DNA from: Escherichia coli
GTDB lineage: Bacteria; Pseudomonadota; Gammaproteobacteria; Enterobacterales; Enterobacteriaceae
Reading direction: 5' to 3' (one strand)
DNA length: 64,000 nt
Assembly (NCBI RefSeq): GCF_965641715.1
Contig: NZ_OZ282453.1
The position numbers were made by a program, and so were the translations under genes. The notes beneath the pieces were generated by a model. That model did no database searches, was not told the origin of the DNA, and saw only the letters and a list, made by a program, of their open reading frames with translations. Below are positions 4,432 through 43,114 of the stretch, in pieces. Numbering within the stretch: position 1 is the first letter of the stretch; each line of letters begins with the position of its first letter.

Positions 4432-6855
4432 ATGTATTCAAGTAGCAGAAAAAGGTGCCCGCAAACCAAATGGGCTTTGAAAATTCTTACTGCCGCATTT
4501 TTAGCAGCGAGTCCCGCGGCGAAGAGTGCCGTTAATAACGCCTATGATGCATTGATTATTGAAGCTCGCAAGGGAAATACTCAGCCAGCTTTGTTATGGT
4601 TTGCACAAAAATCAGCACTCAGTAATAACCAAATTGCTGACTGGTTACAGATTGCCTTATGGGCCGGGCAAGATAAACAGGTTATTACCGTTTACAACCG
4701 CTATCATTATCAGCAATTACCAGCGCGTGGTTATGCAGCTGTCGCCGTCGCTTATCGTAACCTGCAACAATGGCAAAACTCGCTTACACTGTGGCAAAAG
4801 GCGCTCTCTCTGGAGCCGCAAAATAAGGATTATCAACGGGGACAAATTTTAACCCTGGCAGATGCGGGTCACTATGATACTGCGCTGGTTAAACTTAAGC
4901 AGCTTAACTCTGGAGCACCGGACAAAGCCAATTTACTCGCAGAAGCCTATATCTATAAACTGGCAGGGCGTCATCAGGATGAATTACGGGCGATGACAGA
5001 GTCATTACCTGAAAATGCATCTACGCAACAATATCCCACAGAATACGTGCAGGCATTACGTAATAATCAACTTGCTGCCGCGATTGACGATGCCAATTTA
5101 ACGCCAGATATTCGCGCTGATATTCATGCCGAACTGGTCAGACTGTCGTTTATGCCTACGCGCAGTGAAAGTGAACGTTATGCCATTGCCGATCGCGCCC
5201 TCGCCCAATACGCTGCATTAGAAATTCTGTGGCATGATAACCCTGACCGCACTGCCCAGTACCAGCGTATTCAGGTTGATCATCTTGGCGCGTTATTAAC
5301 TCGCGATCGTTATAAAGACGTTATTTCTCACTATCAGCGTTTAAAAAAGACGGGGCAAATTATTCCGCCCTGGGCGCAATATTGGGTTGCGTCGGCTTAT
5401 CTCAAAGAACATCAGCCAAAAAAAGCACAGTCAATAATGACAGAGCTCTTTTATCACAAGGAGACCATTGCCCCGGATTTATCCGATGAAGAACTTGCGG
5501 ATCTCTTTTACAGCCACCTGGAGAGTGAAAATTATCCGGGCGCGCTAACTGTCACCCAACATACCATTAATACTTCGCCGCCTTTCCTTCGGTTAATGGG
5601 CACGCCTACGAGCATCCCGAATGATACCTGGTTACAGGGGCATTCGTTTCTCTCAACCGTAGCAAAATATAGTAATGATCTTCCTCAGGCTGAAATGACA
5701 GCCAGAGAGCTTGCTTATAACGCACCAGGAAATCAGGGACTGCGCATTGATTATGCGAGTGTGTTACAAGCCCGCGGTTGGCCTCGTGCAGCAGAAAATG
5801 AATTAAAAAAAGCAGAAGTGATCGAGCCACGTAATATTAATCTGGAGGTTGAACAAGCCTGGACAGCATTAACGTTACAAGAATGGCAGCAGGCAGCGGT
5901 CTTAACGCACGATGTTGTCGAACGTGAACCGCAAGATCCCGGCGTTGTACGATTAAAACGTGCGGTTGATGTACATAATCTTGCAGAGCTTCGTATCGCT
6001 GGCTCAACAGGAATTGATGCCGAAGGTCCGGATAGTGGCAAACATGATGTCGACTTAACCACCATCGTTTATTCACCACCGCTGAAGGATAACTGGCGCG
6101 GTTTTGCTGGATTCGGTTATGCCGATGGACAATTTAGCGAAGGAAAAGGGATTGTTCGCGACTGGCTTGCGGGTGTTGAGTGGCGGTCACGTAATATCTG
6201 GCTCGAGGCGGAGTACGCTGAACGCTTTTTCAATCATGAGCATAAACCCGGCGCGCGCCTGTCTGGCTGGTATGATTTTAATGATAACTGGCGTATTGGT
6301 TCGCAACTGGAACGCCTCTCTCACCGCGTTCCATTACGGGCAATGAAAAATGGTGTTACAGGCAACAGTGCACAGGCTTATGTTCGTTGGTATCAGAATG
6401 AGCGGCGTAAGTACGGTGTCTCCTGGGCTTTCACTGATTTTTCCGACAGTAACCAGCGTCATGAAGTCTCACTTGAGGGTCAGGAACGCATCTGGTCTTC
6501 ACCATATTTGATTGTCGATTTCCTCCCCAATCTGTATTACGAACAAAATACAGAACACGACACCCCATACTACAACCCTATAAAAACGTTCGATATTGTT
6601 CCGGCATTTGAGGCAAGCCATTTGTTATGGCGAAGCTATGAAAATAGCTGGGAGCAAATCTTCAGCGCAGGTGTTGGTGCCTCCTGGCAAAAACATTATG
6701 GCACGGATGTCGTCACCCAACTCGGCTACGGGCAACGCATTAGCTGGAATGACGTGATTGATGCTGGCGCAACGCTACGCTGGGAAAAACGACCTTATGA
6801 CGGTGACAGAGAACACAACTTATACGTTGAAATCGATATGACATTCAGATTTTAA
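4432..6855 (+). CDS. pgaA: PGA (poly-beta-1,6-GlcNAc) outer-membrane export porin
   Basis: 807 aa with TPR-like N-terminus and beta-barrel C-terminus. Matches PgaA length and sequence from memory. First gene of the pgaABCD order. Confidence 0.95.
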   Translation: MYSSSRKRCPQTKWALKILTAAFLAASPAAKSAVNNAYDALIIEARKGNTQPALLWFAQKSALSNNQIADWLQIALWAGQDKQVITVYNRYHYQQLPARGYAAVAVAYRNLQQWQNSLTLWQKALSLEPQNKDYQRGQILTLADAGHYDTALVKLKQLNSGAPDKANLLAEAYIYKLAGRHQDELRAMTESLPENASTQQYPTEYVQALRNNQLAAAIDDANLTPDIRADIHAELVRLSFMPTRSESERYAIADRALAQYAALEILWHDNPDRTAQYQRIQVDHLGALLTRDRYKDVISHYQRLKKTGQIIPPWAQYWVASAYLKEHQPKKAQSIMTELFYHKETIAPDLSDEELADLFYSHLESENYPGALTVTQHTINTSPPFLRLMGTPTSIPNDTWLQGHSFLSTVAKYSNDLPQAEMTARELAYNAPGNQGLRIDYASVLQARGWPRAAENELKKAEVIEPRNINLEVEQAWTALTLQEWQQAAVLTHDVVEREPQDPGVVRLKRAVDVHNLAELRIAGSTGIDAEGPDSGKHDVDLTTIVYSPPLKDNWRGFAGFGYADGQFSEGKGIVRDWLAGVEWRSRNIWLEAEYAERFFNHEHKPGARLSGWYDFNDNWRIGSQLERLSHRVPLRAMKNGVTGNSAQAYVRWYQNERRKYGVSWAFTDFSDSNQRHEVSLEGQERIWSSPYLIVDFLPNLYYEQNTEHDTPYYNPIKTFDIVPAFEASHLLWRSYENSWEQIFSAGVGASWQKHYGTDVVTQLGYGQRISWNDVIDAGATLRWEKRPYDGDREHNLYVEIDMTFRF

Positions 6856-10664: not shown

Positions 10665-11729
10665 TTAACTGTAGGCATGTAGCGTACGTTGGCAAAGTGC
10701 CGAACGTACGCAATCCTCTTTACCGAACCGGACGATCCCGACCATTTCATCTTCTTCGAAACGTTCCAGCGCGTCACTTAATCCGGAGCACACGCCGCGA
10801 GGCAAATCGCATTGCGTGATATCACCGTTGACGATAACCGTCACGTTCTCCCCGAGGCGGGTTAAAAACATTTTCATTTGCGCGGCAGTCACATTCTGCG
10901 CCTCGTCAAGAATGACGACTGCATTTTCAAAGGTACGTCCACGCATATAGGCGAACGGCGCAATTTCCACCTTCCCTATTTCCGGTCGCAGGCAGTACTG
11001 CATAAAGGAAGCCCCTAAGCGCCGGACCAGCACGTCGTAGACCGGGCGAAAATAGGGAGCAAACTTTTCTGCGATATCTCCAGGTAAGAAGCCAAGATCT
11101 TCATCGGCTTGCAGAACTGGACGGGTGACGATAATCCTGTCGACATCCTTATGTATCAGGGCCTCTGCCGCTTTTGCTGCACTGATCCAGGTTTTTCCGC
11201 ACCCGGCTTCGCCCGTGGCGAATATCAGCTGCTTACTCTCAATAGCCTTCAGATAGTGCAATTGCGCTTCATTTCGCGCGAGGATGGGCGAAGTATCGCG
11301 ACTGTCGCGGGCCATACCAATGGCTTCTACGCCGCTCATCTGCACAAGCGAGGTGACCGATTCTTCTTCACGCTGCTTATGGCTGCGCGAATCCCGTCTC
11401 AGCACACGTTTTGCCTCGCGACGAGCTTTGATCACTGCTTTTTGTCTTCCCATGGAGAGCACCTTGAGTTGTTTGTATTCATCACACGCGCCGTTGGCAG
11501 CGCGATTATGCGCACGAACATCAGAGGGTTGGCTTCCTTGTAAGCCATAGTTTGCTTTTGGATAAAATGCCGAAAAACGGCTACGCGCACCGTTTACGGC
11601 GTCGGTAACACATGAAAAGAAAGGATGAGGTTGAAAATGCAAAGTGACGAGATGACTACCGGAGGAGAAAACTCCGCGAGTGGTGGCGCGTTGATTATCT
11701 AAAACATGTCCAGTACAGGACGTTACCAT
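10665..11729 (-). CDS. phoH: PhoH, ATP-binding Pho-regulon protein
   Basis: 354 aa. Walker A GEAGCGKT. Matches remembered PhoH. Confidence 0.95.
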   Translation of the reverse strand: MVTSCTGHVLDNQRATTRGVFSSGSHLVTLHFQPHPFFSCVTDAVNGARSRFSAFYPKANYGLQGSQPSDVRAHNRAANGACDEYKQLKVLSMGRQKAVIKARREAKRVLRRDSRSHKQREEESVTSLVQMSGVEAIGMARDSRDTSPILARNEAQLHYLKAIESKQLIFATGEAGCGKTWISAAKAAEALIHKDVDRIIVTRPVLQADEDLGFLPGDIAEKFAPYFRPVYDVLVRRLGASFMQYCLRPEIGKVEIAPFAYMRGRTFENAVVILDEAQNVTAAQMKMFLTRLGENVTVIVNGDITQCDLPRGVCSGLSDALERFEEDEMVGIVRFGKEDCVRSALCQRTLHAYS

Positions 11730-30596: not shown

Positions 30597-30963
30597 TACT
30601 GACCTCCGTCTGGGTATAGACATCATATTGCATAGAATTAACGCGGCGTATGGCGGCTGCCATATTTTCGCTACGTGGGACTAAGCTTAGTGAACTGACG
30701 CGGGCAGACCCGCGTTTGGTAATATCCTGCAACAGCTTCTTAGCGAGAATAGATATCATCTCCAATAATTATCTATAAGCCGCTCTTATGATTAAAAAAA
30801 CGCGATGAGATAAAAATGTGTCATTTTGCGACAAAATTGCGTGCTTGTGAAAGTTGTTATAAATCAAATAAGTGGTTGTGAAATTTGCACTCTGAAAAGG
30901 ACGTCTTATCTTTAAATAAGTGGTAGCGAATCGCTACGGAATAGAGATAACACGAGGAGTGGT

Positions 30964-31005
30964 TAGAAATGGCTAAAGTTCTGGTGCTTTTACATAGCTA
31001 AACAC
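30964..31005. other. attL of the wrbA island (proposed crossover GT at 30984-30985)
   Basis: The host-to-island transition is located by comparison with the attR junction. GTGCTTT is shared at 30984-30990 and 42533-42539. Confidence 0.7.
30969..31001 (+). pseudogene. wrbA: orphaned native 5' end of wrbA (MAKVLVLLHS*), severed by island insertion
   Basis: ATGGCTAAAGTTCTGGTGCTTT equals the remembered native wrbA start (MAKVLVLYYS...). The sequence diverges after 30990 and hits TAA at 30999-31001. Confidence 0.85.
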
Positions 31006-31329
31006 GTACATTCAACTACCTGTTAATTACAGGACATAAACAGGTTAGTACCTATTCAATTTAAAGGCATTTCCCCAAGTATCTAAGCAATTCTACACAG
31101 ATTCTATGCAGTATCGGTATAGTCCCTTTTTATCATAACTTATTGAAATATATAAAGAATCTGTGAAGTATCTTTTCAGGGTAAACTGTATCGTGTTAGT
31201 CGTCCCTCTCCAGACACTACATATAGTGCTATATACAGGGTTATATAGCGATGTATAGATGCTTGGTCACCATACGTTACAGTTGCAAGAGATAACAATC
31301 AGCTATGTGAAAGTTAGGAAGTGATGGTT

Positions 31330-31367
31330 ATAGTTGATTCGGTTAGTTCTAGGAATCAACCTCATAG
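31330..31367 (+). repeat. hairpin unit U1 (ATAGTTGATTC...CTCATAG family)
   Basis: Stem GTTGATTC (31333-31340) / GAATCAAC (31353-31360), 12-nt loop, then CTCATAG. Confidence 0.7.
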
Positions 31368-31934
31368 TTACCTTGTCAAATCTTCGTAGTTCCTCTTAAA
31401 AAATCACTTACAGACACCTTAATATCTATACAGATTTCATGTAGAACACGATTAGTGCGTAAAAAAGCTATTATGTTAAAAACGCACTGTATACGTATCA
31501 GTACTGATTTATAAGGGTTTTGTGTATTGGCTGATAAGAGGCTATACAGCACCTTGAGAGCATGTCTTGTAAGTCATTGATACATAAGGTCACAGAAGTT
31601 TGTAGCTGTTACAGAGAAAACTGGATAGGACTTCACAGGACTATAAAATGTTACAGCAATTGATAGGTGAAATCTTCTTGATAGATGCTGTGAAGTGTGA
31701 TGAAGGTTTCTTGAGGTGGAGTTAACAGATGCTATGAAGAAAGTCAATAGATATTTTAAAATTCTGCAAAGGGGGCCACATAGCTGGTGTGACGGGTACT
31801 TAGCAGGTATAGACCTGTGATAGATATTTTCGAAGATTCGGGGAAGATGAGATTCAAAGAGGACTAGTCATTTTTTATAAAAATTTTCAGAGTCTGAAAA
31901 GTTACTGCACAGATTTTGCACAATCCTACCAAGC

Positions 31935-31969
31935 CTCATAGTTGATTCGATTAGAAGCTAATCTCATAG
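31935..31969 (+). repeat. hairpin unit U2
   Basis: CTCATAG-TTGATTC, then stem GATTAG / CTAATC with loop AAG, then (C)TCATAG. Confidence 0.7.
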
Positions 31970-31972
31970 AAA

Positions 31973-32085
31973 GCTCTGTAGCGAGTTTTAACCCCATTTT
32001 TAGGGGTAACCTGTAGGGATGTACCACCCACCTTAAAATAAAGGGGTAAAATCGCTTAGAATGCGTTACAGAGCGTCTGAGAAGC
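31973..32085. repeat. inverted-repeat arm Y (partner 35643-35755)
   Basis: The reverse complement aligns without gaps to 35643-35755. 81 of 113 positions are identical by hand count. Confidence 0.75.
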
Positions 32086-32596
32086 CATATTCACAGATTT
32101 TACTAAAACCTCAGACTTCTAAGTGGTCTTTTTAACAGGAGGGTTCTTTCTCATGTATCACCCTCTCTTCCCGCCAAGTAAGCTACACAGACCTAGAGAA
32201 TATGCCTTCACAGCATCTATATCAGGTCAGATTTAGAGGTCTTGATAGAATCTTCAAAGGTACTTGACAGATAACTATGAAGTTGTTAGGAAGGGGTGTT
32301 TAACGGGGGAAGAGATACGATATAACCCGAAGGGGAGAGTATCATCTTAACAGTGATTGTAAGAGTAAAACTGAAAAGATACTTAACAGAACTACCAAGA
32401 GGGAGCGATAAGACCAGAGGTAGTGACCTGTTAAACAGTTCGTTTCAAAGCTCTTAAGAGTCTGTTAAGTAAGGTCATGTGAACAATCATATCATTTTGT
32501 CAATGCTTTTGTCTTTGACCTAAATCAATAAAATGTATCGTTTGATGTGCTTTTAAACAAAATAGTTAAAAATCTTTTTAGAGGGGCGCTTCGCTT

Positions 32597-33265
32597 GTGT
32601 CACATCCAATAATCCATATCGGTCGTTATCATGGTGGTTCTGATGACTGGCGTACACCGTATCGTCTATTTCATAACCTGCATCGTGAGTATAGCTTCAG
32701 TCTAGATGGCGCTGCAACTGAGCATGACGCATTGTTGCCACGGTTCACCGATGATATAAACCGTCAATCATGGGTTGGTGAACGGGTCTTCGTTAACCCG
32801 CCGTTTAGCATGGCTGAACAGTTCCTCGCAAAAGCCCCTGAAGCTGATGTGTGTGTATGTCTGGTTCCGCACAGGTCAAAGACAACTTACTGGCTTCGGT
32901 GTGTATATACAAACCCCTTCCTGCATGAGATTCGAACATTACACCGAGCGGTTAAATACCTTCCACCAGCAGGAAAGAGAGGTGTTGTAGCGCGTTCACC
33001 ATTTGCAAGCTGTGTTTTGATATACAGGAACACACCCCGTAAACCGAAGGTTGAAATTACCCAGACAATCTATTGTGGCGACACAATGCTTTTACTTGCC
33101 GTGGTTAATAGGGGTGGTTTACGTGGAAGACCTCATATACACGATGCACAGACGCTTGACAGGTTGATTAAAATGCATGACCAAGGGCAATCCGTCAAGA
33201 GTATCGCAGAATCGCTAAGAATGCCTCTAAGCACCACTTACAGGATTGTTCAAAGGTTGAGCTAA
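32597..33265 (+). CDS. phage Dam-family N6-adenine DNA methyltransferase fused to a C-terminal resolvase-type HTH
   Basis: GTG start with GAGGGG 10 nt upstream. DWRTP...FSLDGAA and VFVNPPFS (motif IV) resemble the phage T1/Stx-phage Dam family. The C-terminus GRPHIHDAQTLDRLIKMHDQGQSVKSIAESLRMPLSTTYRIV resembles the Hin/resolvase HTH. Confidence 0.75.
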   Translation: MSHPIIHIGRYHGGSDDWRTPYRLFHNLHREYSFSLDGAATEHDALLPRFTDDINRQSWVGERVFVNPPFSMAEQFLAKAPEADVCVCLVPHRSKTTYWLRCVYTNPFLHEIRTLHRAVKYLPPAGKRGVVARSPFASCVLIYRNTPRKPKVEITQTIYCGDTMLLLAVVNRGGLRGRPHIHDAQTLDRLIKMHDQGQSVKSIAESLRMPLSTTYRIVQRLS

Positions 33266-33266
33266 A

Positions 33267-33296
33267 ATTCTCATATAGAGCACTGATTATGAGAAT
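33267..33296 (+). terminator. 9-bp perfect hairpin directly after the methyltransferase stop
   Basis: ATTCTCATA (33267-33275) / TATGAGAAT (33288-33296), 12-nt loop. No clear T-tract, so its function is uncertain. Confidence 0.35.
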
Positions 33297-33474
33297 GTTA
33301 AAGAGGCGATTTCCCCTTTCTGGGGTTATTCGCTTTTTACTGGAAGGGTTATTTTACAGAGGTTTTTCAAACCCCCTCAATAATAAAAAACGAGCAACAA
33401 ACGAAGAGCGAGAAATAAAATATTGAGACTGGTGAACGGGGTCTGTAAAGATTGTTTAAGAAGTCGGTTTAGGG

Positions 33475-33518
33475 ATTGGTAGATGATTCGGATGAAGCAT
33501 CCTCATAACAATACCAAT
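33475..33518 (+). repeat. hairpin unit U3 (nested stems)
   Basis: Outer stem ATTGGTA / TACCAAT. TGATTCG. Inner stem GGATG-AAG-CATCC, then TCATAA. Confidence 0.65.
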
Positions 33519-33574
33519 TAGAAGGTGGCTCTCCCTTTCTGGGGATATCGCCTTGTATCTTAGTGAGTCCAGGA

Positions 33575-33751
33575 AGTTCTCTGTGAAGGGACTTGTCAGT
33601 CCTTTATATTGGCTAATTACAACTTATTGAAAAATAAGCATTTTTAGAAATCACTGTTAAGGTTACAGAGTTCTCTGTGAAGAGACTCGTCAGCTCTCTA
33701 TATTGGCTAATTACAACTCATTGAAAAATAAGCATTTTTAGAAATTGCTGT
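33575..33751 (+). repeat. two direct 83-bp repeats with 94-bp period
   Basis: 33575-33657 against 33669-33751: 75/83 identical by hand count. Each copy contains CTGTGAAG...CTTGTCAG/CTCGTCAG and the hairpin CTTATT-gaaa-AATAAG (copy A; copy B reads CTCATT). Confidence 0.85.
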
Positions 33752-33871
33752 CAGAGAGGTGAGTACTTGATAGATACAGCTTTCCGGTTCTGTCAAGATA
33801 TTTTTTAATAGATAGCACAAAATGCTAAAGATACCCCTATACCATCACGTACAGGGGGTTTTGAAGGGAGT

Positions 33872-34060
33872 TTAACGGGGTTCTGTGTGGTTATCTGTTC
33901 TGGTCCTGTCCTTGAGGTCAAATGACCATTCACGACCAAACAATCTGAACACGATAAACACCCGAACGATGAAATAGCGGAGCAGAAGACCTGCAATCAG
34001 CCCAACACCTCCACCAGCCCATACATCAGGTGACCCCAGCTCAGGAGGGAGATTTACCAT
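33872..34060 (-). CDS. possible small membrane protein (62 aa from the internal ATG; 74 aa from the first ATG at 34096)
   Basis: Only minus-strand ORF in the island besides int. This patch is visibly more GC-rich than the surrounding non-coding DNA. AGGAA lies upstream of ATG 34060. TM segment GGGVGLIAGLLLRYFIVRVFIVF followed by a basic tail. Confidence 0.35.
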   Translation of the reverse strand: MVNLPPELGSPDVWAGGGVGLIAGLLLRYFIVRVFIVFRLFGREWSFDLKDRTRTDNHTEPR

Positions 34061-34097
34061 TAAATTTCCTGTGTGCAATGCAATACCATGTGACATA

Positions 34098-34153
34098 CAT
34101 AGTTGATTCGGTTAGTTGGGCTTGTACCAACCCCTATCGAATAAACCTCATAG
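34098..34153 (+). repeat. hairpin unit U4 (nested stems)
   Basis: CATAGTTGATTCGGTTAGTT is identical to U1 over 19 nt. Outer stem TTGATTCG / CGAATAAA, inner stem GTTGG / CCAAC, ends in CTCATAG. Confidence 0.7.
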
Positions 34154-34222
34154 CCACGCTTCATATTTCCCCCTCTCTCATAAACCATTATACCACAAAT
34201 GTTACGAAATTGTTAAAAATAC

Positions 34223-34251
34223 TTGACATTAGTCTTTGAAAATGCTAGTAT
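34223..34251 (+). promoter_or_regulatory. island promoter P1 (sigma70-type)
   Basis: TTGACA-17 nt-TAGTAT, preceded by TGTTAAAAAT and followed by TGTATATA. It is a near-copy of P2. A GTTAA-N7-TTAAC palindrome follows at 34261-34277. Confidence 0.65.
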
Positions 34252-34299
34252 TGTATATAAGTTAACAGAGAATTAACAATTATAAGGACTAGCTTATGA

Positions 34300-34857
34300 A
34301 TGAACGACAGAGAATTTAGAGCGATGCTTCAGGCATCGAGACAACGTAACAGATACAACTCCTACAGCTACACAGACACCCCCACCAGCTACGAACTACC
34401 CAAGCTCACCAGAGCAGAACGCAAAGGCCTTGATGAATTAATTCGTAGCATTACGCCACGAGATAGATTTATGCCAACCAGAAAGAGCACGAAGAACACT
34501 ATTAAAAATTATCTGGCTAACTTTGACAGCTACGAACAATTACCAAGTAAGCTTGATGATGTAATTATCGGATTCTGTAGAAGTGAAGGTCACCCGAAAT
34601 ACAACAAAAAACTATTTTATCTTCTAAAGAATCTTGACGAAATTAACTCAGCCACCGTGACAAATCATCTTCAGCGTCAAGCAACCAGACTTAGCCATGA
34701 ATTACCAAGCGATAAATATTGCGCTTTGCTTGCTGTAATGTGCGCAAAGTTAATTGGTGTTGTTGAGCATCATATTGCCGTTGGAAATATTGAGCCAATG
34801 GAAAACGAGCAACCAGATTTCGAGTTTGACCCGTATTTAGTTACAGAGGAATTTTAA
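34300..34857 (+). CDS. hypothetical protein, 185 aa
   Basis: AAGGA upstream. First gene after P1. No family recognised. Confidence 0.65.
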   Translation: MNDREFRAMLQASRQRNRYNSYSYTDTPTSYELPKLTRAERKGLDELIRSITPRDRFMPTRKSTKNTIKNYLANFDSYEQLPSKLDDVIIGFCRSEGHPKYNKKLFYLLKNLDEINSATVTNHLQRQATRLSHELPSDKYCALLAVMCAKLIGVVEHHIAVGNIEPMENEQPDFEFDPYLVTEEF

Positions 34858-35136
34858 ATGAAGAAACACACTTTGACCCGTATTTCAGAAGAAGCCTTTC
34901 ACGAGCTTACCCGAATTAAACAGACAACTAACCTCCCTCATCAAACTGTTATGCAGCTTGCAATTGCTAAAGAGGTTACTGAGTCGGATTTACTGAAATA
35001 TCCAGTCTCTAAAGGTCGTAAGCACATCCGAATTACTCAGGACGCTTTAGATACTTTGAAGGCACTTAACAACTTTAAAATTGATATCGCCCGACTATTG
35101 AGTATTAAGATTCACAAGTTAGCAATGGGGGTTTAA
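34858..35136 (+). CDS. hypothetical protein, 92 aa (possible ribbon-helix-helix DNA binder)
   Basis: ATG abuts the upstream TAA. The N-terminal KKHTLTRISEEAFHEL pattern looks RHH-like (weak). Confidence 0.55.
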   Translation: MKKHTLTRISEEAFHELTRIKQTTNLPHQTVMQLAIAKEVTESDLLKYPVSKGRKHIRITQDALDTLKALNNFKIDIARLLSIKIHKLAMGV

Positions 35137-35351
35137 TGCTATGCGTTACCTTTGAATACCACACGGATAAAATGATTCGCTACATCTCCGACCTCCTGAT
35201 TGAAGGAAACGGATTCGGTGACATCCATAACTCAAAAGATATTTTCATTAAAGCCATTGGCCCAAATGAAGTACTGAAAACAGCAGTTAAACCGGAATGG
35301 TTTGAGCGTCACAAGATTGAATTAGGTTATTGGGGTGAGGAGGTTTTATGA
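35136..35351 (+). CDS. hypothetical protein, 71 aa
   Basis: TAATG overlap with the upstream gene. Confidence 0.55.
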   Translation: MLCVTFEYHTDKMIRYISDLLIEGNGFGDIHNSKDIFIKAIGPNEVLKTAVKPEWFERHKIELGYWGEEVL

Positions 35352-35635
35352 AACCTTGGCATGAAGATGTTAGACGATATTTTACAGAACACCTTATCTA
35401 TGATGAATCCAGTGATTCCCTGTGCTGGTCTGATGGAGAGTCAGTCACGATAAACACCGACGACTACGGCAACAAAACATTTAATATAGGCCGATATACT
35501 TTCTACGTGAAATATGTTGTCTGGTTCCTTTATCATGGCTATCAATCCAACAAGCAAATTATCCATCGAAATGGTAACAGAGCCGATACCAGACCAAAAA
35601 ATCTTATGCAAGTCCGAGACTTTAAGAGAAATTAG
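35348..35635 (+). CDS. small HNH-type endonuclease-like protein, 95 aa
   Basis: ATGA overlap with the upstream gene. YVVWFLYHGY...IHRNGNRADTRPKNL resembles the HNH_3 motif (H-x-N-G-N..DNR..NL). Confidence 0.65.
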   Translation: MKPWHEDVRRYFTEHLIYDESSDSLCWSDGESVTINTDDYGNKTFNIGRYTFYVKYVVWFLYHGYQSNKQIIHRNGNRADTRPKNLMQVRDFKRN

Positions 35636-35642
35636 AAAAACA

Positions 35643-35755
35643 GCTTCTCAGACGCTCTCAATCGCATTCTAACGCAAAAAACTATCTTATTTTAGGGTGG
35701 GTAATACCACTGTACAGGCTACCCCTGAAAAAGACTGTTTAGCTCGTTACAGAGC
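35643..35755. repeat. inverted-repeat arm X (partner 31973-32085)
   Basis: See arm Y. Lies in the 156-bp gap between the HNH gene and the next ORF. Confidence 0.75.
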
Positions 35756-35791
35756 GATTGAGGAGGTCTGGTAAAAAGGAGATTTTAAGAA

Positions 35792-36121
35792 ATGAGAGAA
35801 TTAAACTTCCCACTACAGATTTTTATTGATACCGACACCGCCATGATGATTCAGGCTTTCACTGATGTAGGTGTTAGCATTGACTTTGATAAGTTGTTAG
35901 AGTTAATGACTGATAATGCGGAAAGCATCTCTGACTTTATTCAGTCGGTGGAGTTTAACGAGCCTCGAATGATGCTACCAATTAAAGACAGCAACATGAA
36001 AAGATTGGTTATCGAGCAAACGAACAAATTCAGCGTTAGCCCTGAAAAATATCTCAAGGCGGCTATAGCAATTTTGTACGCTGACAATATTTTGGTGACG
36101 GATTCGAAGGTGGTGCATTAA
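35792..36121 (+). CDS. hypothetical acidic protein, 109 aa
   Basis: AAGGAG lies 8 nt upstream of the ATG. Confidence 0.6.
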   Translation: MRELNFPLQIFIDTDTAMMIQAFTDVGVSIDFDKLLELMTDNAESISDFIQSVEFNEPRMMLPIKDSNMKRLVIEQTNKFSVSPEKYLKAAIAILYADNILVTDSKVVH

Positions 36122-36186
36122 TGGAATTGGTGATTATCTGTTTTGTATTGATTGGTATGATTGCAGGTGCATCTATTAAAGTATAA
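36121..36186 (+). CDS. 21-aa hydrophobic peptide MELVIICFVLIGMIAGASIKV
   Basis: TAATG overlap with the upstream stop (translational coupling). Single TM-like stretch. Below the ORF-track size cutoff. Confidence 0.4.
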   Translation: MELVIICFVLIGMIAGASIKV

Positions 36187-36211
36187 ATGTTACCAATCTG
36201 TTAAAAATCTG

Positions 36212-36240
36212 TTGACAAATAACCTTGAGCATGACATAAT
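36212..36240 (+). promoter_or_regulatory. island promoter P2 (sigma70-type)
   Basis: TTGACA-17 nt-CATAAT, preceded by TGTTAAAAAT and followed by TGTATATA. Confidence 0.65.
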
Positions 36241-36246
36241 TGTATA

Positions 36247-36503
36247 TATATGAGGATAGTCTTCTATCCGAAGTCTATAGGGAGAGCAATTCTCCTTGAA
36301 TTAAAATATTAATCATCTCTACATCAATGATAACTATATTCTGAGTTGGTGAGGTATGTTCTATACCGAACATTCTGAAAGGTGCAATGCTTTTCGTCAT
36401 GGCCTTTCAGTTTAGTCTGAGAGGCTATCTCAAAAAGTGCTTAATCATTCATTCATTGAATCCTTTACAGCTTTGCCCTAATCATGAGTTAGGGCGTTTC
36501 TTT
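36247..36503 (+). ncRNA. putative ~255-nt leader/short RNA from P2 to the first terminator
   Basis: No ORF of 60 aa or more. Hairpins GGATAG-tctt-CTATCC, GGAGA-gcaat-TCTCC and CTGAAAGG (36375-36382) / CCTTTCAG (36403-36410). Ends at an intrinsic terminator. Confidence 0.3.
36475..36503 (+). terminator. intrinsic terminator in the P2 leader
   Basis: GCCCTAA-tcatgag-TTAGGGC followed by GTTTCTTT. Confidence 0.7.
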
Positions 36504-36573
36504 AAGAGTTTTAAGCAGAGCTTTTAAAGAAAGTTTTTCCTGAAACTTCGTTAACGTTATAAAGCAAACCTTC

Positions 36574-36610
36574 AAAGCCCTTCACAGATTCAATGTTTAG
36601 GGCTTTTCTT
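36574..36610 (+). terminator. second hairpin/terminator in the P2 leader
   Basis: AAAGCCCT / AGGGCTTT 8-bp stem. The 17-nt loop contains CTTCACAGATT. Followed by TCTT. Confidence 0.45.
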
Positions 36611-36707
36611 AATAGAGCATCTTTAATAAATCGTTAAGTCATCTTCTAAGTGTATTGGCGTTGAAGGTGCTCTGTTAAGAAATAAACCACACTTAGAGGA
36701 AGTTATA

Positions 36708-37418
36708 ATGACAAACGATTTATATATTAACGGTAAAAAGGTTGATAGCTTCGGTGACTGGTCGCCACAGACTGAACATCCAGCTATCACTATTCAGCGC
36801 AAAGAACACGATGAAAGAATTGCACTTGAGCAAGAAATCCGAATGTCACCAAAGGTAATTTCCTTTGTGGCTCCTGAGCCTCAAGATATGCCGGATATTT
36901 GCAAAACTGAAGCATTGCTTGAGCTTGAAAAGAAATTTTACCCAGCTTTAAAAGCACAGCGTCTTAAACTAGATGACGCTTACAGTAAAGTTACCCTGAT
37001 GCAATCAGCTATTGAGCCATCAGAATTTGAGATTCAGGATGAATTGTCACAGAAACCATTTGTCTATTACCAATATGAAGACAATGATGGTTTTGGTACT
37101 TTTCCTGAGAATATCCCAGACGTGATTAATAATCCGATGGATGGATATCGAATTGTGAAGATGGTTAAGGCATCAAGAGGTGCTGGTCAGTTTATTTACA
37201 TGACTAATAAGAGCGATGAAGAACTCGCTGAACTTGCTAGACAGAACATCTTGGCATCACGTAACAAGCAGCTTGATAATGTTAAGTTGTATCTCTCAAG
37301 AGAGCTTCAGGCTATGAAAGACCTTGTGAAAGAATATGAAGATGCTAAGAAGATTGCTATGCAAGCCGATATTGAGCAGTTAGTGAAGATTTCTAGCAAA
37401 TATGCAAAGGCTATTTAA
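36708..37418 (+). CDS. hypothetical acidic/coiled-coil protein, 236 aa
   Basis: AGAGGAAG upstream. It sits where tail assembly chaperones sit in siphophage gene order, but I saw no sequence motif supporting that role. Confidence 0.6.
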   Translation: MTNDLYINGKKVDSFGDWSPQTEHPAITIQRKEHDERIALEQEIRMSPKVISFVAPEPQDMPDICKTEALLELEKKFYPALKAQRLKLDDAYSKVTLMQSAIEPSEFEIQDELSQKPFVYYQYEDNDGFGTFPENIPDVINNPMDGYRIVKMVKASRGAGQFIYMTNKSDEELAELARQNILASRNKQLDNVKLYLSRELQAMKDLVKEYEDAKKIAMQADIEQLVKISSKYAKAI

Positions 37419-37437
37419 TTATGATGTGAGGTGAAGA

Positions 37438-37653
37438 ATGATTGATTTAACTGAACGCTATGAAGTTATTAAGTCTGTTTGTGAGAACTTAAAGCTTCAG
37501 ACTAAACCAAAGCTACGAATTAAAAATCAGCATCAAGTTATCACCTCACACAAACCAAAGGTTAGAAGGATTCCTTCATGGTGTATTGACCGTGTTCCTG
37601 CTGATGCTCAATTAATTGGTGAGTCTGGTTCTTACACTTATATCCTTCATTAA
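37438..37653 (+). CDS. hypothetical basic protein, 71 aa
   Basis: GAGGTGAAG upstream. Confidence 0.5.
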   Translation: MIDLTERYEVIKSVCENLKLQTKPKLRIKNQHQVITSHKPKVRRIPSWCIDRVPADAQLIGESGSYTYILH

Positions 37654-37660
37654 AAATTAC

Positions 37661-37704
37661 AAAGGGGAGAGATTAGCCTTAATTGGTTAGTCTTTCCCTT
37701 TTTC
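37661..37704 (+). terminator. imperfect hairpin + T-run upstream of the tape-measure gene
   Basis: aaaggggagaga ... tctttccctttttcg, with a bulged stem. Confidence 0.4.
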
Positions 37705-37734
37705 GTATATGAACACTTAAGAGGTGAAACATGA

Positions 37735-39864
37735 ATGGCACAGTTTAAAGTTGATAGTTTTATCGTTGAGCTAGGCTTCAGCGAGAACGTTATTAAGGGC
37801 TTGCAAAGAGTTGAAAAGGCAGCTTTGCAGTCAGCACAAAGAATTGAGCGTAATTTGAATAGAGCGTTTAAGGTCGATACCAAGCAACTTGACAGCAATT
37901 TAACGGCTTCTTTGAAGTCAATGGAAGGAAAAATTAATAAGACCTTTGACCGTCTGGAAGCTAGAGCAAAAAATACTAAAGCTTTCCAGTTTACCACCAG
38001 ATTTAATGACACTGTTAATCCTCCAAAACAACCGAGACAGCCACGAATTAGCGGCAACAGAGCAATCACAGCAGCTTACTCAGCGAATATGAGCAAGTTA
38101 AAGGGCTTTGACCCTATTTTGCAGAAATACATCAAATCTCAGTTTTACGGGCTATCTGCTAAAGCTGGGTCAATGGATAACACCAAGTTTAATGAAGCCC
38201 TTGCTAAACTAAATTCAAGTGTAAGAGAAGCAATTGCTAAAGCTAAAGGTCATACATCCACCAGCATTAACGGTGACAGAGCAGCTAATAGTCTTGATAA
38301 CCTGTCTTCAGCGGCGGTTAAAACAGCAGGTGCATTTATCTCAATGCAGGCTGTATTAGCCAGTTATCAGAAGATTATGGAGGTTGGTTTACAGCGTGCA
38401 AGTGCTGAGCGTTCAATTGATTTCGTATTTGATAAAGATGCAGGTCAGGTAAAAGAGTTCACAAAGTCATTAGCTCAAACAACGGGTTTAGATATCGCTG
38501 AACTGCAATCACAGTTTGCTGGTTTCGGTGCTTCAGCTAAAGAGTCTATGGGTATTCAAGGTTCTGAAGAGCTTTTTAGAAATATGATTGGCTATGCTCG
38601 TTTAATGGGTCGAAGTGAAGAAGAGATTAAGCGAGCACTGACAGCATTATCACAGATGGCTGGTAAGGGTCAGGTTATGGCTGAAGAGCTTAAGGGGCAA
38701 CTAGCTGAAGCTGTTCCTGGTATGGTTCAGGTATTCGCTAAAGCAACCGGAAAGAGTGAACAGGAATTATTTGATGCCATGAAGAAGGGGGCTTTAAAAT
38801 CTGCCGATACTCTTCAGAAGGTCACTCAGGAACTGAATAGACAAATCACCGCTAAAGGTGGCTGGAAAGCTATTTCAGAAAGTACACAGGCACAACTAGG
38901 GAACTTGAAAAACTCTTGGAATACCACGCTTGACAGTATTTTCAGAGGTTCTGAAGATGGTTTACAGGACTTCACAAGAAGCTTAACCAATCTTCTAAAC
39001 GCTCTTGGTGGAACTGGTAAAACATTAGGTGAAAGTTTTGGTAGCTTGATGAGCGATATGTCACATGGTATCGATTCATTGACTGATATCTCTTACAGGG
39101 TACGAGGTTTCTTTGATGAGGTGACATTAGCTTACCGTTCACTAAATGACACTCAGAAAAAAATTGTTGATGGTTTATCTGATGGGTTAATTGATGGTTT
39201 GAAAATGCTTGCCGTAGCTGTTACTGCTCAAAAGGCTGCAAATGTAGCTGGAGGCTTGTTAAACCTTGCAAACGCTGTTACTTCATTCGGTGACGCTGTT
39301 AATAAAGCTAAAGCTGGCAAGGCTGGTTCTTCAGGTGGTGCGCTAAGTAAAGTCGGTAGAGTTGTCCTTTATGCTGAGTTGGTAAACTTTGCTCTTGATA
39401 ATTTAAACCCTGAAGCAGCTAAGAATCCGAACTTACATCAATCAGGTATTGGAACAGAGACAAACTTCAACCCTGAATACAAAGGCGATTCTACACCAAA
39501 CCAAATTAATGATGGATGGGCTAAGATTGGTAGTTCTATCGCTGACTGGTTTAATGGTGCGGCTAATAAAATTGCTAACTTCCAAGAGCCAATGAGTAAC
39601 CTTGTTAATAACACACAATCAACTCCACCAGCTATTACAGGTGACATGGTTAATAGCAATGCTCAACTTGCAATGGCTATTAGTGAACTATCACGTAAGG
39701 TTGATGCTTTAACAGCAGAATCTAAGAAGCCCTTGTCACTTAATATCAAAGGTGAAGCAATTGTTAGACCGGATGAACCAGCTTTCTTTACTTTCAATCA
39801 ATCAGCTAATGACCAGTTCACGCAGGATATGCTCTTAAGTTCAAGCTATCCAGAGGAAGAATGA
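37735..39864 (+). CDS. phage tail tape-measure protein, 709 aa
   Basis: GAGGTG lies 8 nt upstream. LSQMAGKGQVMAEELKGQLAEAVPGMVQVFAKATGKSEQELFDAMKKGALKSADTL matches the conserved tape-measure N-terminal domain pattern. Long Ala/Gly/Ser-rich helical protein. Confidence 0.8.
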   Translation: MAQFKVDSFIVELGFSENVIKGLQRVEKAALQSAQRIERNLNRAFKVDTKQLDSNLTASLKSMEGKINKTFDRLEARAKNTKAFQFTTRFNDTVNPPKQPRQPRISGNRAITAAYSANMSKLKGFDPILQKYIKSQFYGLSAKAGSMDNTKFNEALAKLNSSVREAIAKAKGHTSTSINGDRAANSLDNLSSAAVKTAGAFISMQAVLASYQKIMEVGLQRASAERSIDFVFDKDAGQVKEFTKSLAQTTGLDIAELQSQFAGFGASAKESMGIQGSEELFRNMIGYARLMGRSEEEIKRALTALSQMAGKGQVMAEELKGQLAEAVPGMVQVFAKATGKSEQELFDAMKKGALKSADTLQKVTQELNRQITAKGGWKAISESTQAQLGNLKNSWNTTLDSIFRGSEDGLQDFTRSLTNLLNALGGTGKTLGESFGSLMSDMSHGIDSLTDISYRVRGFFDEVTLAYRSLNDTQKKIVDGLSDGLIDGLKMLAVAVTAQKAANVAGGLLNLANAVTSFGDAVNKAKAGKAGSSGGALSKVGRVVLYAELVNFALDNLNPEAAKNPNLHQSGIGTETNFNPEYKGDSTPNQINDGWAKIGSSIADWFNGAANKIANFQEPMSNLVNNTQSTPPAITGDMVNSNAQLAMAISELSRKVDALTAESKKPLSLNIKGEAIVRPDEPAFFTFNQSANDQFTQDMLLSSSYPEEE

Positions 39865-40020
39865 TTTAACGGTGTTCTACGTGAATAAAGCAAAGTTAAT
39901 ACCCACACCAAAAATTATTTTTCACGTAGCTCACGCTTAACAGAGAAAATACATATATATCAAAGGCTTGGTTAAAAATGATTAAAATACACTAAGCCTT
40001 TGAAATCAAAGGAGAATTTA

Positions 40021-40794
40021 ATGATTTTTAGCAATCAAATCCGCTACAGTGGCAAAGATGGCATCTATTTCCACTTAAGAGATAATGTAGATGCCTTCTT
40101 AACCTTATCAGCAACTGAAAACATGGAATTTGACAGTCCTATGCAGGTGACTACACAGAACATGCAATCAGGGCAAACCGTCACAGATAATGTGCAAAGA
40201 GCACCCAGAACAATCACTATTAGTGGTGTCGTTGTAGTTGGCTATGAAGGAAGCTTATTATTAACTCGTCAGGGTCAATTAGTAGAAAACTTCATTGACA
40301 CTCTTGAAAGCTGGAGAGACCAGAAACAAATTATTTCAGTGATTTGTAAAGATGGTATCAAGATTGATGACTCAATTATTACCAACTTTAAAGCCTCTAA
40401 AGATGTTACTATCTCTAACGGTCTTCGTATCCAGCTAACTTTTCAGGAAATTAACTTCAAAGCCATTGTAGGGCAAACTGATGTTTCAGCAGCTACTGGC
40501 AAAACTGCTACCACTAATGATGGTGGTGCTACCAGTAAAAAGAATGCGGGTAACGTGACTACTGAACGCAATAACGCACCTATGTTGATGTGTCAGGAAC
40601 TGTATAGCTACTCAGCATCTGAGCTATCTGATGAAGCGCTAAGGGTCCGTAGCAATTGCTCTAAAAATGTCACGGTGAAAGATGGTGTAAGCACCTTCAC
40701 AGCCTCAGCTAATGAGCAGGCTTCAAAAGTGCTTAAGTCGGGTAATGCTTTACGGAAGTTTAGTGTGAATCCGAATAAGAAGGGCACTTATTGA
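40021..40794 (+). CDS. putative tail-tip/distal-tail-like protein, 257 aa
   Basis: GGAG lies 6 nt upstream of ATG 40021. Sits directly after the TMP. The assignment rests on position only. Confidence 0.45.
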
Positions 40795-40811
40795 TTGGTA
40801 ACAATACCAAT
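40794..40811. terminator. hairpin between the convergent tail gene and int
   Basis: ATTGGTA-acaa-TACCAAT. These are the same arms as the outer stem of unit U3. Confidence 0.45.
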
Positions 40812-40813
40812 TC

Positions 40814-42457
40814 CTAAGCGTCCACCTCTTCCATATCACCAGCAGGATAAATCCTTGTTACTGGTTCACCAAAAATAAGCATATCATCTAGTGACTGCAT
40901 CTCATCGGTTGCTTCTTCAAGCGTTAAGGTGTGGTCATCTTTACCATCAAGAGGGAAACCACGAATCATATTTCCATTGTGAAGATATATATCCACCAGC
41001 TTTTCATTACCAGAAACAACAATCTCTTTCACCAGACGCTTAATGATAATCTGGGCTTCAGTTCTCCCCTCTACAGACTCCATATCAAGACCGCTTAAAT
41101 CCAAGCTTGATACAGATTTTACCCTCGCCTTTTCTCGTGATAACTGAACTATCAGTTCATCTTTTTCTTCCTGCTTAACCCGTAGTGCTTCCTGAATCTG
41201 AGTGATGTTAGGAAGCTGTATCAGCGTCTCAGTAAGTTTTTCAAGTTCACTATCAACGGTGTTTAGTCTGCGTTGTAGCTCATCCAATTTAGCTGTGTCA
41301 GTAGCTTCATCGTGTAGCTGTGATAGTTTGCTGAACAGACGACTACAAAGCTGTGTATCAAGTAACTTTCTGGACACTGTACCGTAGCTACAACGGGACT
41401 CCTTATTACCATTGCAACGGTAAGTACCTTGATAAACGGGTTTACGTATCCCTGTAGGAGTCATTACAAGCCCACACTTACAACGGATAAGCCCCTTCAG
41501 TATGTTCACATATAGCCAGTGTTCACCGCTGGATGTTTTCCCCTTCCCTGTTTCCTCTAACAGTTGCTGTACAGCGTAAAACTTAGAGTCTGTGACAATC
41601 TGAGGATAGAACCCTTCAATTTCTTCACGTAACACTGTTTTACGGTCTTCTGTAGAAATCTTAGCGGGAAGGTAACCTAATACACTTCGTGAAGTCAGGA
41701 TGTGTTTAACGCTTAATGCTGACCAGTTGCCATCCGGTTTCTTAGTCTTGGATATTCTGACCTTACGCTGATTAATGGTCGGGTAACCTTGTTCGTTTAG
41801 CCATTTACAGATAGCAAACATCGACATACCAGAAAGACGCTTGTCATAGATGATATTCACCAGTGACGCTTTATCTTCATCAACGATGTAGTGTGAACCG
41901 TCTTCTGATAGCTCTAACCATCCGGGGGCTTGCTTACCCATAGGCTTCTTAAGTTCTCTTGCAAGCTGTGTTTTATGGTTCCAGACCTGAGCTATACGCT
42001 TTTGCTTAACAAGAGATTCCTGATGTGCTCTCTCAGCTATGATGATGTGCTTAATCAACTTCACAGGGTCTGTTAATGCTGATTTGTCGTAGAGTTCACC
42101 ATCTCCCAGAGTCAGTATAGAGACTCCTTTCCTCAGTATCTGCCTGACATCATCTATAGCTGTGTCGATATCAGCCCTACTGAAGCGGTCAAAGTTCTCT
42201 ACAACAATCAGGGAACCTTCTGGAATAGCCCCAGACATAACATTTTCAAACATACGTCTGAAGTCAGAACCTTGAGCCTTATGTTGCTGGTGAAAACCAG
42301 ATTTACCCTTATCAACGTATCTGTGAGCAGGAAGAAGGTAATAATCGTTTTTGTGCTTAGAGTAGAAAGCATCAATGAGGTTTGTTTGCCGTCTTAAGGA
42401 GTCTCCTGAGTCTTGCTCTTTAGTACTCCACCTGATGTATGTCACTAGCAGCTTCAT
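40814..42457 (-). CDS. large serine recombinase (integrase), 547 aa
   Basis: N-terminal resolvase catalytic domain ([28 protein letters not shown]). Recombinase domain. Cys-rich zinc ribbon (CKCG...YRCNG...C). Coiled-coil. Terminal position 75 bp from attR. Confidence 0.88.
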
Positions 42458-42508
42458 ATCTTCGGACTATGCTTATCTAAGTGGTTCATTGAACAGGAGA
42501 ACAATGAT

Positions 42509-43114
42509 ATGAGTGTTAAGGCAAGAATACTAGTGCTTTATTATTCCATGTACGGACATATTGAAACGATGGCACGCGCAGTCGCTGAGGGTGCAAGCAA
42601 AGTGGATGGCGCTGAAGTTGTCGTTAAGCGTGTACCGGAAACCATGCCGCCGCAATTATTTGAAAAAGCAGGCGGTAAAACGCAAACTGCACCGGTTGCA
42701 ACCCCACAAGAACTGGCCGATTACGACGCCATTATTTTTGGTACACCTACCCGCTTTGGCAACATGTCCGGTCAAATGCGTACCTTCCTCGACCAGACGG
42801 GCGGCCTGTGGGCTTCCGGCGCACTATACGGAAAACTGGCGAGCGTCTTTAGTTCCACCGGTACTGGCGGCGGTCAGGAACAAACCATCACATCCACCTG
42901 GACGACCCTTGCGCATCACGGCATGGTGATTGTCCCCATTGGCTACGCAGCGCAGGAATTATTTGACGTTTCACAGGTTCGCGGCGGTACGCCGTACGGC
43001 GCAACCACCATCGCAGGCGGTGACGGCTCACGCCAGCCAAGCCAGGAAGAACTGTCTATTGCTCGTTATCAAGGGGAATATGTCGCAGGTCTGGCAGTTA
43101 AACTTAACGGCTAA
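42509..43114 (+). CDS. wrbA: NAD(P)H:quinone oxidoreductase WrbA, hybrid allele with an island-encoded N-terminus
   Basis: 201 aa. [17 protein letters not shown]... against remembered native [14 protein letters not shown].... AGGAG at 42495-42499. The remainder matches WrbA. Confidence 0.92.
42513..42554. other. attR of the wrbA island (proposed crossover GT at 42533-42534)
   Basis: Island-to-wrbA transition. See attL. Confidence 0.7.

Follow-up and report, generated by a model that had tools for sequence, protein, structure and literature searches.

Inverted arms in a chromosomal island of Escherichia coli as copies of a portable palindromic module related to plasmid cer sites

The window analysed here, a stretch of 64,000 nucleotides from an Escherichia coli chromosome (contig NZ_OZ282453.1 of assembly GCF_965641715.1), carries an AT-rich island, and within the island an inverted-repeat pair with arms of 113 nt brackets a block of 3.6 kb. 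Judged from their sequence, the two arms are diverged paralogous copies of a portable, palindromic intergenic module of ~130-165 bp, and the 3.6 kb enclosed between them is not a functional unit; the pair looks like an inverted repeat because two copies happen to lie in opposite orientation. The explanation we favour, to which we give a probability of roughly 0.4, is that the module is a DNA-level architectural or regulatory element derived from the cer-type multimer-resolution sites of plasmids, with a possible weak, inward-firing promoter resembling the Pcer promoter of cer, and that it doubles as a linker for the exchange of island modules.

The repeat itself is just as the first-pass annotation of this DNA had described it. 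The reverse complement of 31973-32085 aligns without gaps with 35643-35755, with identity at 81 of the 113 positions (72%; E = 1e-11 by BLASTN), and the identical runs quoted at the time, GCTTCTCAGACGCTCT, CGCATTCTAA, GGTGGGT, TATTTTA, TACAGG, TACCCCT and TACAGAGC, are all present. The best gapless inverted match of the same length reached 55-64 identities in ten shuffles of 31001-37000. Weaker similarity continues beyond these limits to a total of ~165 bp; a repeat search returns the pair 32056-32118 / 35610-35672, and nhmmer places the two copies at 31954-32087 (-) and 35642-35773 (+). A feature absent from the earlier description is that each arm is itself an imperfect palindrome of ~125 nt. 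Folded as RNA, the right arm has a minimum free energy (MFE) of -47.8 kcal/mol (z -5.7; DNA z -4.7), and the 3' box described below pairs in the folds with the region of the 5' box; for the left arm the MFE is -40.9 (z -3.1), or -45.9 (z -5.0) on the opposite strand, with a DNA z of -4.0. The self-symmetry of the arms therefore supplies part of the inverted-repeat signal. When gaps are allowed, the inverted arm-to-arm alignment has 93 identities and a score of 47, and the direct alignment a score of 2. The right arm starts 8 nt past the stop codon of a gene assigned by Pfam to HNH_3 (35348-35635) and occupies the whole gap between that gene and the next, which encodes a protein of 109 amino acids.

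Three types of module and their distribution

Alignment of the copies found in sister islands, viral contigs and metagenomes separates them into three sequence types with common 5' and 3' boxes. The metagenome scan returned mostly chance matches, from which 45 true copies were taken by nhmmer for the analysis of variants. The 5' box of all types reads AGACGCTCT[CAAT/GTAA]CGCATTCTRAC; the 3' box is CTCGYTACAGAGC. Type A, represented by the right arm, usually lies 3' of an HNH gene, and a variant, A2, lies 3' of another gene. Type B, represented by the left arm, occupies the place of type A in L031 (L numbers denote the loci compared here), and in the mini-islands L032 and L034 it adjoins the gene for a small serine recombinase. 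Type C is shorter by ~23 nt, and its site is between the gene for a 62-aa protein, just upstream of the ribosome-binding site, and a set of divergent promoters. The window has no type C copy: comparison with L003 reveals a clean empty site between 34069 and 34070, where the ~105-bp type C module and the XerC-like arm of the sister islands are absent.

These types are found at three positions as A only (L002), B only (L031, L032 and L034), C only (L003 and L033), C+A (L001), B+A and B+C+A. Wherever B and A occur together, in the window and in L006, L011, L104, L114 and L118, the arrangement is B(-), A(+) with the 5' boxes facing inward; the arms are not obligate partners, because every other combination also exists. 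The suggestion in the first-pass annotation that came closest to this picture was that of divergent inverted copies of a regulatory module, to which we add that the copies are paralogous and conserved, and that their B(-)/A(+) arrangement recurs in the five loci just named.

A search with the right arm matched 421 of 5426 complete E. coli genomes, in up to 6 places per genome. Chromosomes hold 564 of the 590 E. coli places and plasmids the other 26. The loci that were inspected, a minority of the 590, all proved to be members of this island family, a remnant disrupted by an insertion sequence (L035, which adjoins prophage genes) or a ColE2-like plasmid.

Within each type, the conservation of arms A and B is far above that of at least one flank. 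Arm B and its counterparts in L006, L032 and L034 agree at 94-96% of positions, their left flanks at 53-66%. For arm A the figure is 97-100% in L001, L002 and L006, and the genes downstream of it show 60-77% identity in L001 and L006 and 81-86% in L002, where the drop is small. When L001 and L006 are compared, a block of 97-100% identity spans the HNH gene and stops at arm A, and in the A2 variants homology begins exactly at the 5' edge of the module. With its own sequence conserved amid breakpoints at its edges, the module is under constraint and, at the same time, a place where recombination breakpoints recur.

Relation to plasmid cer sites

Homology links the 5' box ACGCTCTCAATCGCATTCTRAC with the accessory arm that adjoins the XerC half-site of ColE2/ColE1-type cer. 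In ColE2-like (Col156, MOBQ) plasmids the box immediately adjoins GGTGCGTACAA-GAGGAG-TTATGGTAAAT, which is a cer-type XerC/XerD core without mismatch (11/11 + 11/11), and an ARG box, TGCATAACTATGCA, lies directly 3' of the plasmid 3' box; the plasmid counterpart of the module is therefore the spacer of ~100 bp between the ArgR site and the Xer core. The cer site of ColE1 can be aligned with the ColE2-like sequence through the core and the segment next to it (GCGCTGAACGCGTTTTAG from ColE1, GCGATTGAGAGCGTTTTAG from the ColE2-like plasmids). A cer-like site has been reported on ColE2-type plasmids (PMC6856555), and reported features of cer itself are phased A/T tracts, sites for FIS and ArgR, and the promoter Pcer, from which the 70-nt Rcd RNA is transcribed (PMC2831885, PMC5935869). 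An nhmmer profile built solely from the cer regions of ColE2-like plasmids finds arm A at 35644-35683 (E = 1.8e-6) as its sole match in the window below E = 1; it also matches type C along the Xer core and on through the 5' box (E ~2e-6), ColE1 cer (E = 1e-3), and L015 and L023 over ~100 nt. Islands, plasmids, L015 and L023 all retain the basal stem TTCTRACG / CGTYAGAA, with G-C exchanged for A-T. On plasmid pREF2-1179-2 the box is found upstream of rep, at a distance of ~170-200 nt and immediately outside the cer-like core. Two other ideas about the plasmid copies were tried and dropped: a small open reading frame (ORF) downstream of the box (MVNG...) is not a gene, 'ATGGTAAAT' being the XerD arm of the cer-like core, and an origin in a ColE2 Rep leader or RNAI was discarded once the 316-aa protein of L004 proved not to be a Rep.

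The islands have Xer-like sequences of their own. Type C in the sister islands adjoins the core GCGTCTTACAA-GGAAAWY-TAATGGTAAAT (7/11 + 11/11), and the only exact match to the XerD arm in the window, at 34052-34062, contains the ATG of the 62-aa gene. A dif-like core, AGTGCGTAAAA-AAGCTA-TTATGTTAAAA, is found at 31454-31481 (+) and agrees with the consensus arms at 9/11 and 10/11 positions; it is kept in L002, L003, L006 and L033 with the central region CAGCTA and no annotated gene there, so Xer-type sites belong to the island family.

The module would be placed, in our preferred explanation, as sharing ancestry with, or descending from, the accessory arm of the Xer multimer-resolution sites (cer type) of plasmids. 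The ancestral part would be the bent segment, with an inverted repeat at its base, found between the XerC half-site and the sites of the accessory proteins, and types A and B would have lost, or never had, the Xer core that type C keeps. As DNA, curved and palindromic, the module may bind nucleoid or accessory proteins. It may also contain a weak Pcer-like promoter in antisense, in which case the two copies of the window would fire inward; when the left arm is aligned with the ColE1 and ColE2-like sites, the -10 element of a candidate promoter in it falls in a region adjoining the XerC arm of cer. Finally, because it is the best-conserved sequence between divergent blocks of genes, the module probably serves as a homology linker for the exchange of island modules.

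A consensus scan predicts a divergent pair of promoters at 34187-34251 and a further rightward promoter at 36212-36240. The rightward member of the pair (34223-34251) would drive a rightward operon and read through the right arm in sense; from these positions the arm therefore falls within that operon, flanked by the HNH gene and the gene that follows it. For the left arm the setting is a stretch of 1.8 kb (~30780-32597) without any ORF longer than 60 aa, whose counterpart in the sister islands has no annotated gene. A scan for intrinsic terminators found none at either arm; GGTAAAAAGGAG follows arm A.

Several observations weigh against a descent from cer and a role as DNA. The homology with cer is limited to ~40 nt of arm A, and arm B goes undetected by the plasmid-only profile, so that it is tied to cer only through its homology to arm A. 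Neither A nor B has an XerD arm (by eye, 3-5/11 to consensus at the expected position); without an Xer core, they cannot be Xer crossover sites. The ARG box TGMATWWWWATKCA, searched with <=2 mismatches, has 15 matches in the window against 14.8 expected, none of them beside the arms. In T5-like phages, L015 and L023 no Xer core accompanies the 22-nt 5' box CTAAAACGCYCTCAAWCGCATTCTRAC, whose own function may therefore be unconnected with Xer. The putative -35 element is not conserved, and the candidate promoters score only 8-9/12. The extended palindromes of A and B, with their many paired differences, are a better fit to a function as single-stranded RNA or DNA than to DNA architecture.

The wider distribution of the 5' box was seen in scans of public collections, where it is present in small ColE2-like plasmids, in the terminal repeats of T5-like phages, in L023 and in L015. 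In the T5-like phages (Epseptimavirus; L005 at 820-849, L014, L020 and L025-L029) it stands near the left end of the terminal repeat, beside DnaA-box-like TGTTGATAA repeats. In L023, a phage contig of 348 kb, it stands at 711-732. L015, a different mobile element that also encodes a small serine recombinase, has it twice in tandem (6204-6480).

Set beside known systems, the module agrees with the cer sites of ColE1 and of ColE2-related (MOBQ4) plasmids, at which Xer, ArgR and PepA act in multimer resolution, in its 5' box beside the XerC half-site, its basal inverted repeat and its A/T-tract-rich DNA, and type C of the sister islands adjoins a core of XerC arm, 7 bp and XerD arm. It departs from them in that A and B have no Xer core or recognisable ARG box and are extended to long palindromes, and in that it is found in a chromosomal island rather than on a multicopy plasmid, in up to three copies and both orientations. 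The pdif modules of Acinetobacter plasmids and the Xer-dependent mobile elements (IMEX) offer a second likeness: two inverted Xer-like cores, here 31454-31481 (+) and the type C core of the sister islands (-), with variable cargo between them that includes a methyltransferase gene, and with AP2/ERF and small recombinase genes nearby, partly outside the interval. Unlike those systems, the central regions differ (AAGCTA vs GGAAAWY), the breakpoints of the cargo lie off the cores, and no alternative orientation or context of the island cores was seen. The nutL/nutR and putL/putR sites of lambdoid phages are likewise diverged copies of a cis-acting module, oppositely oriented around a control region, and the linkers at mosaic boundaries of phages are conserved intergenic sequences at module junctions. 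The arms, however, have no boxA/boxB, put-like structure or Rfam match, and the promoters at 34187-34251 lie between them, not adjacent to them.

Competing explanations

The most substantial competitor, possible if on the whole unlikely, holds that the module is a structured hairpin in mRNA, acting as a site of RNase III or RNase E processing or stabilisation, or controlling translation of the next gene, in the manner of ERIC/IRU repeats, the R sites of T7 or sib of lambda; the inverted copies would be complementary to each other as RNA only if read off the same strand. The folds of A and B are strong and significant. Type A, and type B in L031, fill an intra-operon gap in sense, downstream of a good promoter, beginning 8-25 nt past a stop codon and leaving 20-30 nt to the start codon that follows; in L003 (9745-9881) and L033 (9515-9652), which have no type A, an unrelated hairpin, GAGTGAGAC...GTCTCACTC, takes the same intergenic position. 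Paired differences between A and B keep the palindromes, as in AACG/CGTT vs AGCG/CGCT and AAAAAC/GTTT vs TTTTA-CCCC/GGGG-TAAAA. One-sided changes among type B variants leave 12 pairs still paired in sense vs 4 in antisense, and by eye one apical pair is compensated in L114 (GGG/CCC to GGU/ACC). Yet RNAalifold over A, B and C finds no common long hairpin and no covarying pairs, and type C folds no better than its shuffles (RNA z 0 to -1.2; DNA -1.7). Substitutions within types break about as many pairs as they keep, with no clear strand preference in type A; the left copy sits in its 1.8-kb region without annotated genes and with no strong sense promoter, and the conserved 5' box is held in common with a DNA site, cer. 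Rfam 15 gives no match at the gathering threshold, and the two hits in 30700-36800 (E 1.8 and 3) are not near the arms. The plasmid locus and the T5-like locus gave nothing at gathering or permissive thresholds either, and a scan for tRNA and tmRNA found none.

It seems improbable that the module is a selfish or neutral palindromic repeat of the MITE kind, shuffled among mobile elements and conserved through recent spread and recombination. Its size is that of ERIC, it is an imperfect palindrome with imperfect terminal inverted repeats (AGACGCYCTCAATCGC / GCGATTGARGAGGTCT), and the shortening of type C by ~23 nt makes an internally deleted variant. Its presence or absence at the type C site is clean, with a possible but ambiguous 2-bp duplication of CT, and it occurs in either orientation and at mosaic boundaries. 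Against this, the inspected loci show no dispersal, the module being confined to the island family, the remnant and ColE2-like plasmids; no transposase is associated with it, and the target duplication is ambiguous. Its positions relative to genes are fixed across islands, and its 97-100% identity amid divergent flanks, repeated at one locus across many lineages, points to constraint more than to recent insertion. The ERIC/IRU sequences provide the nearest parallel, as imperfect palindromes of ~127 bp that are intergenic, often within operons and in either orientation, that include internally deleted variants and that may affect mRNA; they differ in that the module keeps to mobile elements and fixed positions and is not spread chromosome-wide. 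We know of no sequence similarity between the module and the ERIC consensus.

Less probable again is that the copies are res- or hix-like sites for the HTH_7 proteins of the islands, that is, the small serine recombinases and the fusion in the window of a Dam-family methyltransferase with a Hin-type tail. Binding of such proteins could then make the copies sites of resolution, inversion or targeted methylation. A length of ~120 bp would suit a res site, and several imperfect inverted half-sites can be picked out by eye from the alignments. Type B lies ~350 bp upstream of the small serine recombinase gene in L032 and L034, in the same orientation, and the unrelated element L015 has two tandem copies along with a recombinase of the same family; the GRP and HTH_7 end of the methyltransferase in the window aligns with the DNA-binding domains of recombinases. 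However, L006, L002, L003 and L033 have modules and no small recombinase, and the first three also lack the methyltransferase gene. In L031 the recombinase gene is 2.5 kb away and in opposite orientation, the recombinases come from three different families, the palindrome GTCTSAGAC occurs at chance level, and an inverted configuration is found in none of 543 genomes.

The readings with which the pair was first presented, as ends of an invertible segment, as a cos site served by the HNH protein, or as paired sites like ori/crr of P4, are essentially excluded. In their favour stood an inverted pair around a block of 3.6 kb, an arm directly 3' of an HNH gene, and a B(-)...A(+) arrangement that recurs in five other loci. 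A synthetic inverted junction (left flank, arm and reverse complement of the HNH gene) was sought in the 543 genomes with matching sequence among the 5426, and in none was it found: no place covers >=80% of it, and the maximum, 61%, is the parental arrangement. The Hin/Gin/Cin systems have short, nearly identical crossover sites and an adjacent invertase gene, and the window has neither; the arms are 72% identical, and instead of a resolvase catalytic domain only the methyltransferase with its HTH_7 tail was found in the window. The first-pass annotation had said it would yield to a single orientation combined with unconserved arms; a single orientation is what is seen, while the arms are conserved among island homologues. 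Obligatory paired sites do not agree with A, B and C standing alone in many islands or in any combination, nor with arms that have no iterons, and no initiator or primase family was matched among the 11 island ORFs scanned or appears in the annotation of the sister islands. For a cos site, no terminase was matched among the same 11 ORFs (Pfam and PHROGs), which include both neighbours of the right arm; terminase annotation is absent from the sister islands, and the tape measure gene of the window, outside the scan, is named from annotation. The module moreover follows genes other than HNH in L031 and the A2 variants. In phage genomes the arm has only marginal T5-like matches of 30 nt, and none in Felixounavirus, the helper-type phages. 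The module was also considered as an attachment site of the large serine recombinase; attB, attL and attR were determined, and the module is unrelated to them.

The host island and its other features

The positions of the modules, their boxes and the surrounding features are collected in Table 1.

Table 1. Coordinates of module copies, sites and genes in the window
Feature	Position	Strand	Basis or remark
Host island, 11.5 kb, AT-rich, in the 5' end of wrbA	30991..42529	.	Empty-site comparison with L038; crossover within GTGCTTT
Left arm, copy of type B module	31954..32087	-	nhmmer E = 4e-36; encloses 31973-32085; weaker homology to ~32118
3' box of left arm, CTCGCTACAGAGC	31973..31985	-	Alignment of module copies
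Candidate promoter TTAAAA-18-TAGAAT in left arm, antisense to module	32033..32062	+	Scan 9/12; weak
5' box of left arm, variant ACGCTCTGTAACGCATTCTAAG	32055..32076	-	Alignment of module copies
Dam-family N6-adenine methyltransferase with Hin/resolvase-type GRP/HTH_7 tail	32597-33265	+	Tail aligns with C-termini of small recombinases of sister islands
Gene for 62-aa single-pass membrane protein	33872-34060	-	ATG inside XerD-arm-like TAATGGTAAAT
Remnant of type C site: XerD-arm-like TAATGGTAAAT and 7-bp central region	34052..34069	-	Comparison with L003
Predicted sigma-70-like promoter TTGACA-17-TAGTAT, TG-extended	34223..34251	+	Consensus scan 10/12
HNH_3 endonuclease gene	35348..35635	+	PF13392 E = 1.8e-8; last of four genes upstream of right arm
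Right arm, copy of type A module	35643..35771	+	nhmmer E = 3.6e-40; weaker homology from ~35610
5' box of right arm, ACGCTCTCAATCGCATTCTAAC	35652..35673	+	Pattern scans; match to cer profile
3' box of right arm, CTCGTTACAGAGC	35743..35755	+	Invariant columns in 22 copies; basal stem in folds
Tape measure gene	37735-39864		DNA ~88% identical to that of Felixounavirus garuso
Dit-like baseplate gene	40000-40794
Large serine recombinase	40814-42457	-

The surrounding chromosome is that of E. coli (rut operon, wrbA, agp), and the island sits in the first codons of wrbA, for which it supplies a replacement N-terminus. Its relatives are found in yecE, near tonB and in mdtG, and pieces of it are present in ~8-10% of complete E. 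coli genomes. The mini-islands L032 (5796-9729) and L034 (5821-9816), inserted in mdtG or beside tonB, contain nothing but a large serine recombinase, type B, one coiled-coil protein and a small serine recombinase; they seem to be either a minimal form of the island or derived from it by deletion.

Other products of the island include the HNH_3 protein, the 62-aa membrane protein and several proteins without any match in Pfam or PHROGs. The 62-aa gene, with a predicted near-consensus, TG-extended promoter at 34216-34187 (-) and a terminator-like hairpin at 33857-33834, resembles a small toxin or holin-like gene, and the fusion of methyltransferase and HTH_7 tail could, from its domain make-up, be a site-targeted methylase. 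Iteron-like repeats occur outside the arms, as two tandem copies of 94 bp (33575-33751, 90% identical) with a partial third 2.4 kb to the left (31132-31179); both motifs, TCTGTGAAG...CAG and AACTTATTGAAAWATA, are common to the copies, which are candidates for iterons, an origin or a packaging site of the island. A direct repeat of 34 nt, AAATGTTAC-N6-TGTTAAAAAT, 79% identical between 34187-34220 and 36175-36208, stands just upstream of, or overlaps, the -35 element of both strong rightward promoters and is probably a shared operator. Outside the island, Rfam marks Ysr251, naRNA4 (CssrE) and the cspA thermoregulator at 10670-10863, 47721-47799 and 58482-58904, all ordinary chromosomal features.

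With its serine recombinase and its tail genes, the island looks like an undescribed satellite of virulent phages of the Felix O1 type, and a search of the literature found no description of a satellite with these features. A broader proposal, which we regard as doubtful, is that A, B and C are the cis-acting control elements of a satellite family in E. coli that exploits virulent Felixounavirus, and that they are cer sites put to new use in one of three ways. They may be promoters of inward, Rcd-like antisense RNAs (a), active when the island is excised or multimeric; they may be structured RNA switches that answer infection by the helper (b); or they may be points of exchange at which Xer or serine recombinases assist the shuffling of cargo (c). 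Any of these, if true, would be a new use of the dimer-resolution and checkpoint module of plasmids in the biology of phage satellites.

The attractive readings as invertible segment, cos site or pair of origins give way to an explanation of the arms that can be tested, as a portable and conserved module related to plasmid cer. As the best-conserved non-coding sequence of these islands, the module is a natural first target for studies of their regulation and mobilisation, and the occurrence of a 22-nt box common to ColE2-like plasmids, the terminal repeats of T5-like phages, a phage contig of 348 kb and the islands hints at a sequence recognised by a host factor. The host island, with its serine recombinase and Felixounavirus-like tail genes, is of more interest than the repeat and merits separate attention. 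Through the module, Xer-type sites are linked to a satellite-like family of chromosomal islands found in ~8-10% of complete E. coli genomes.

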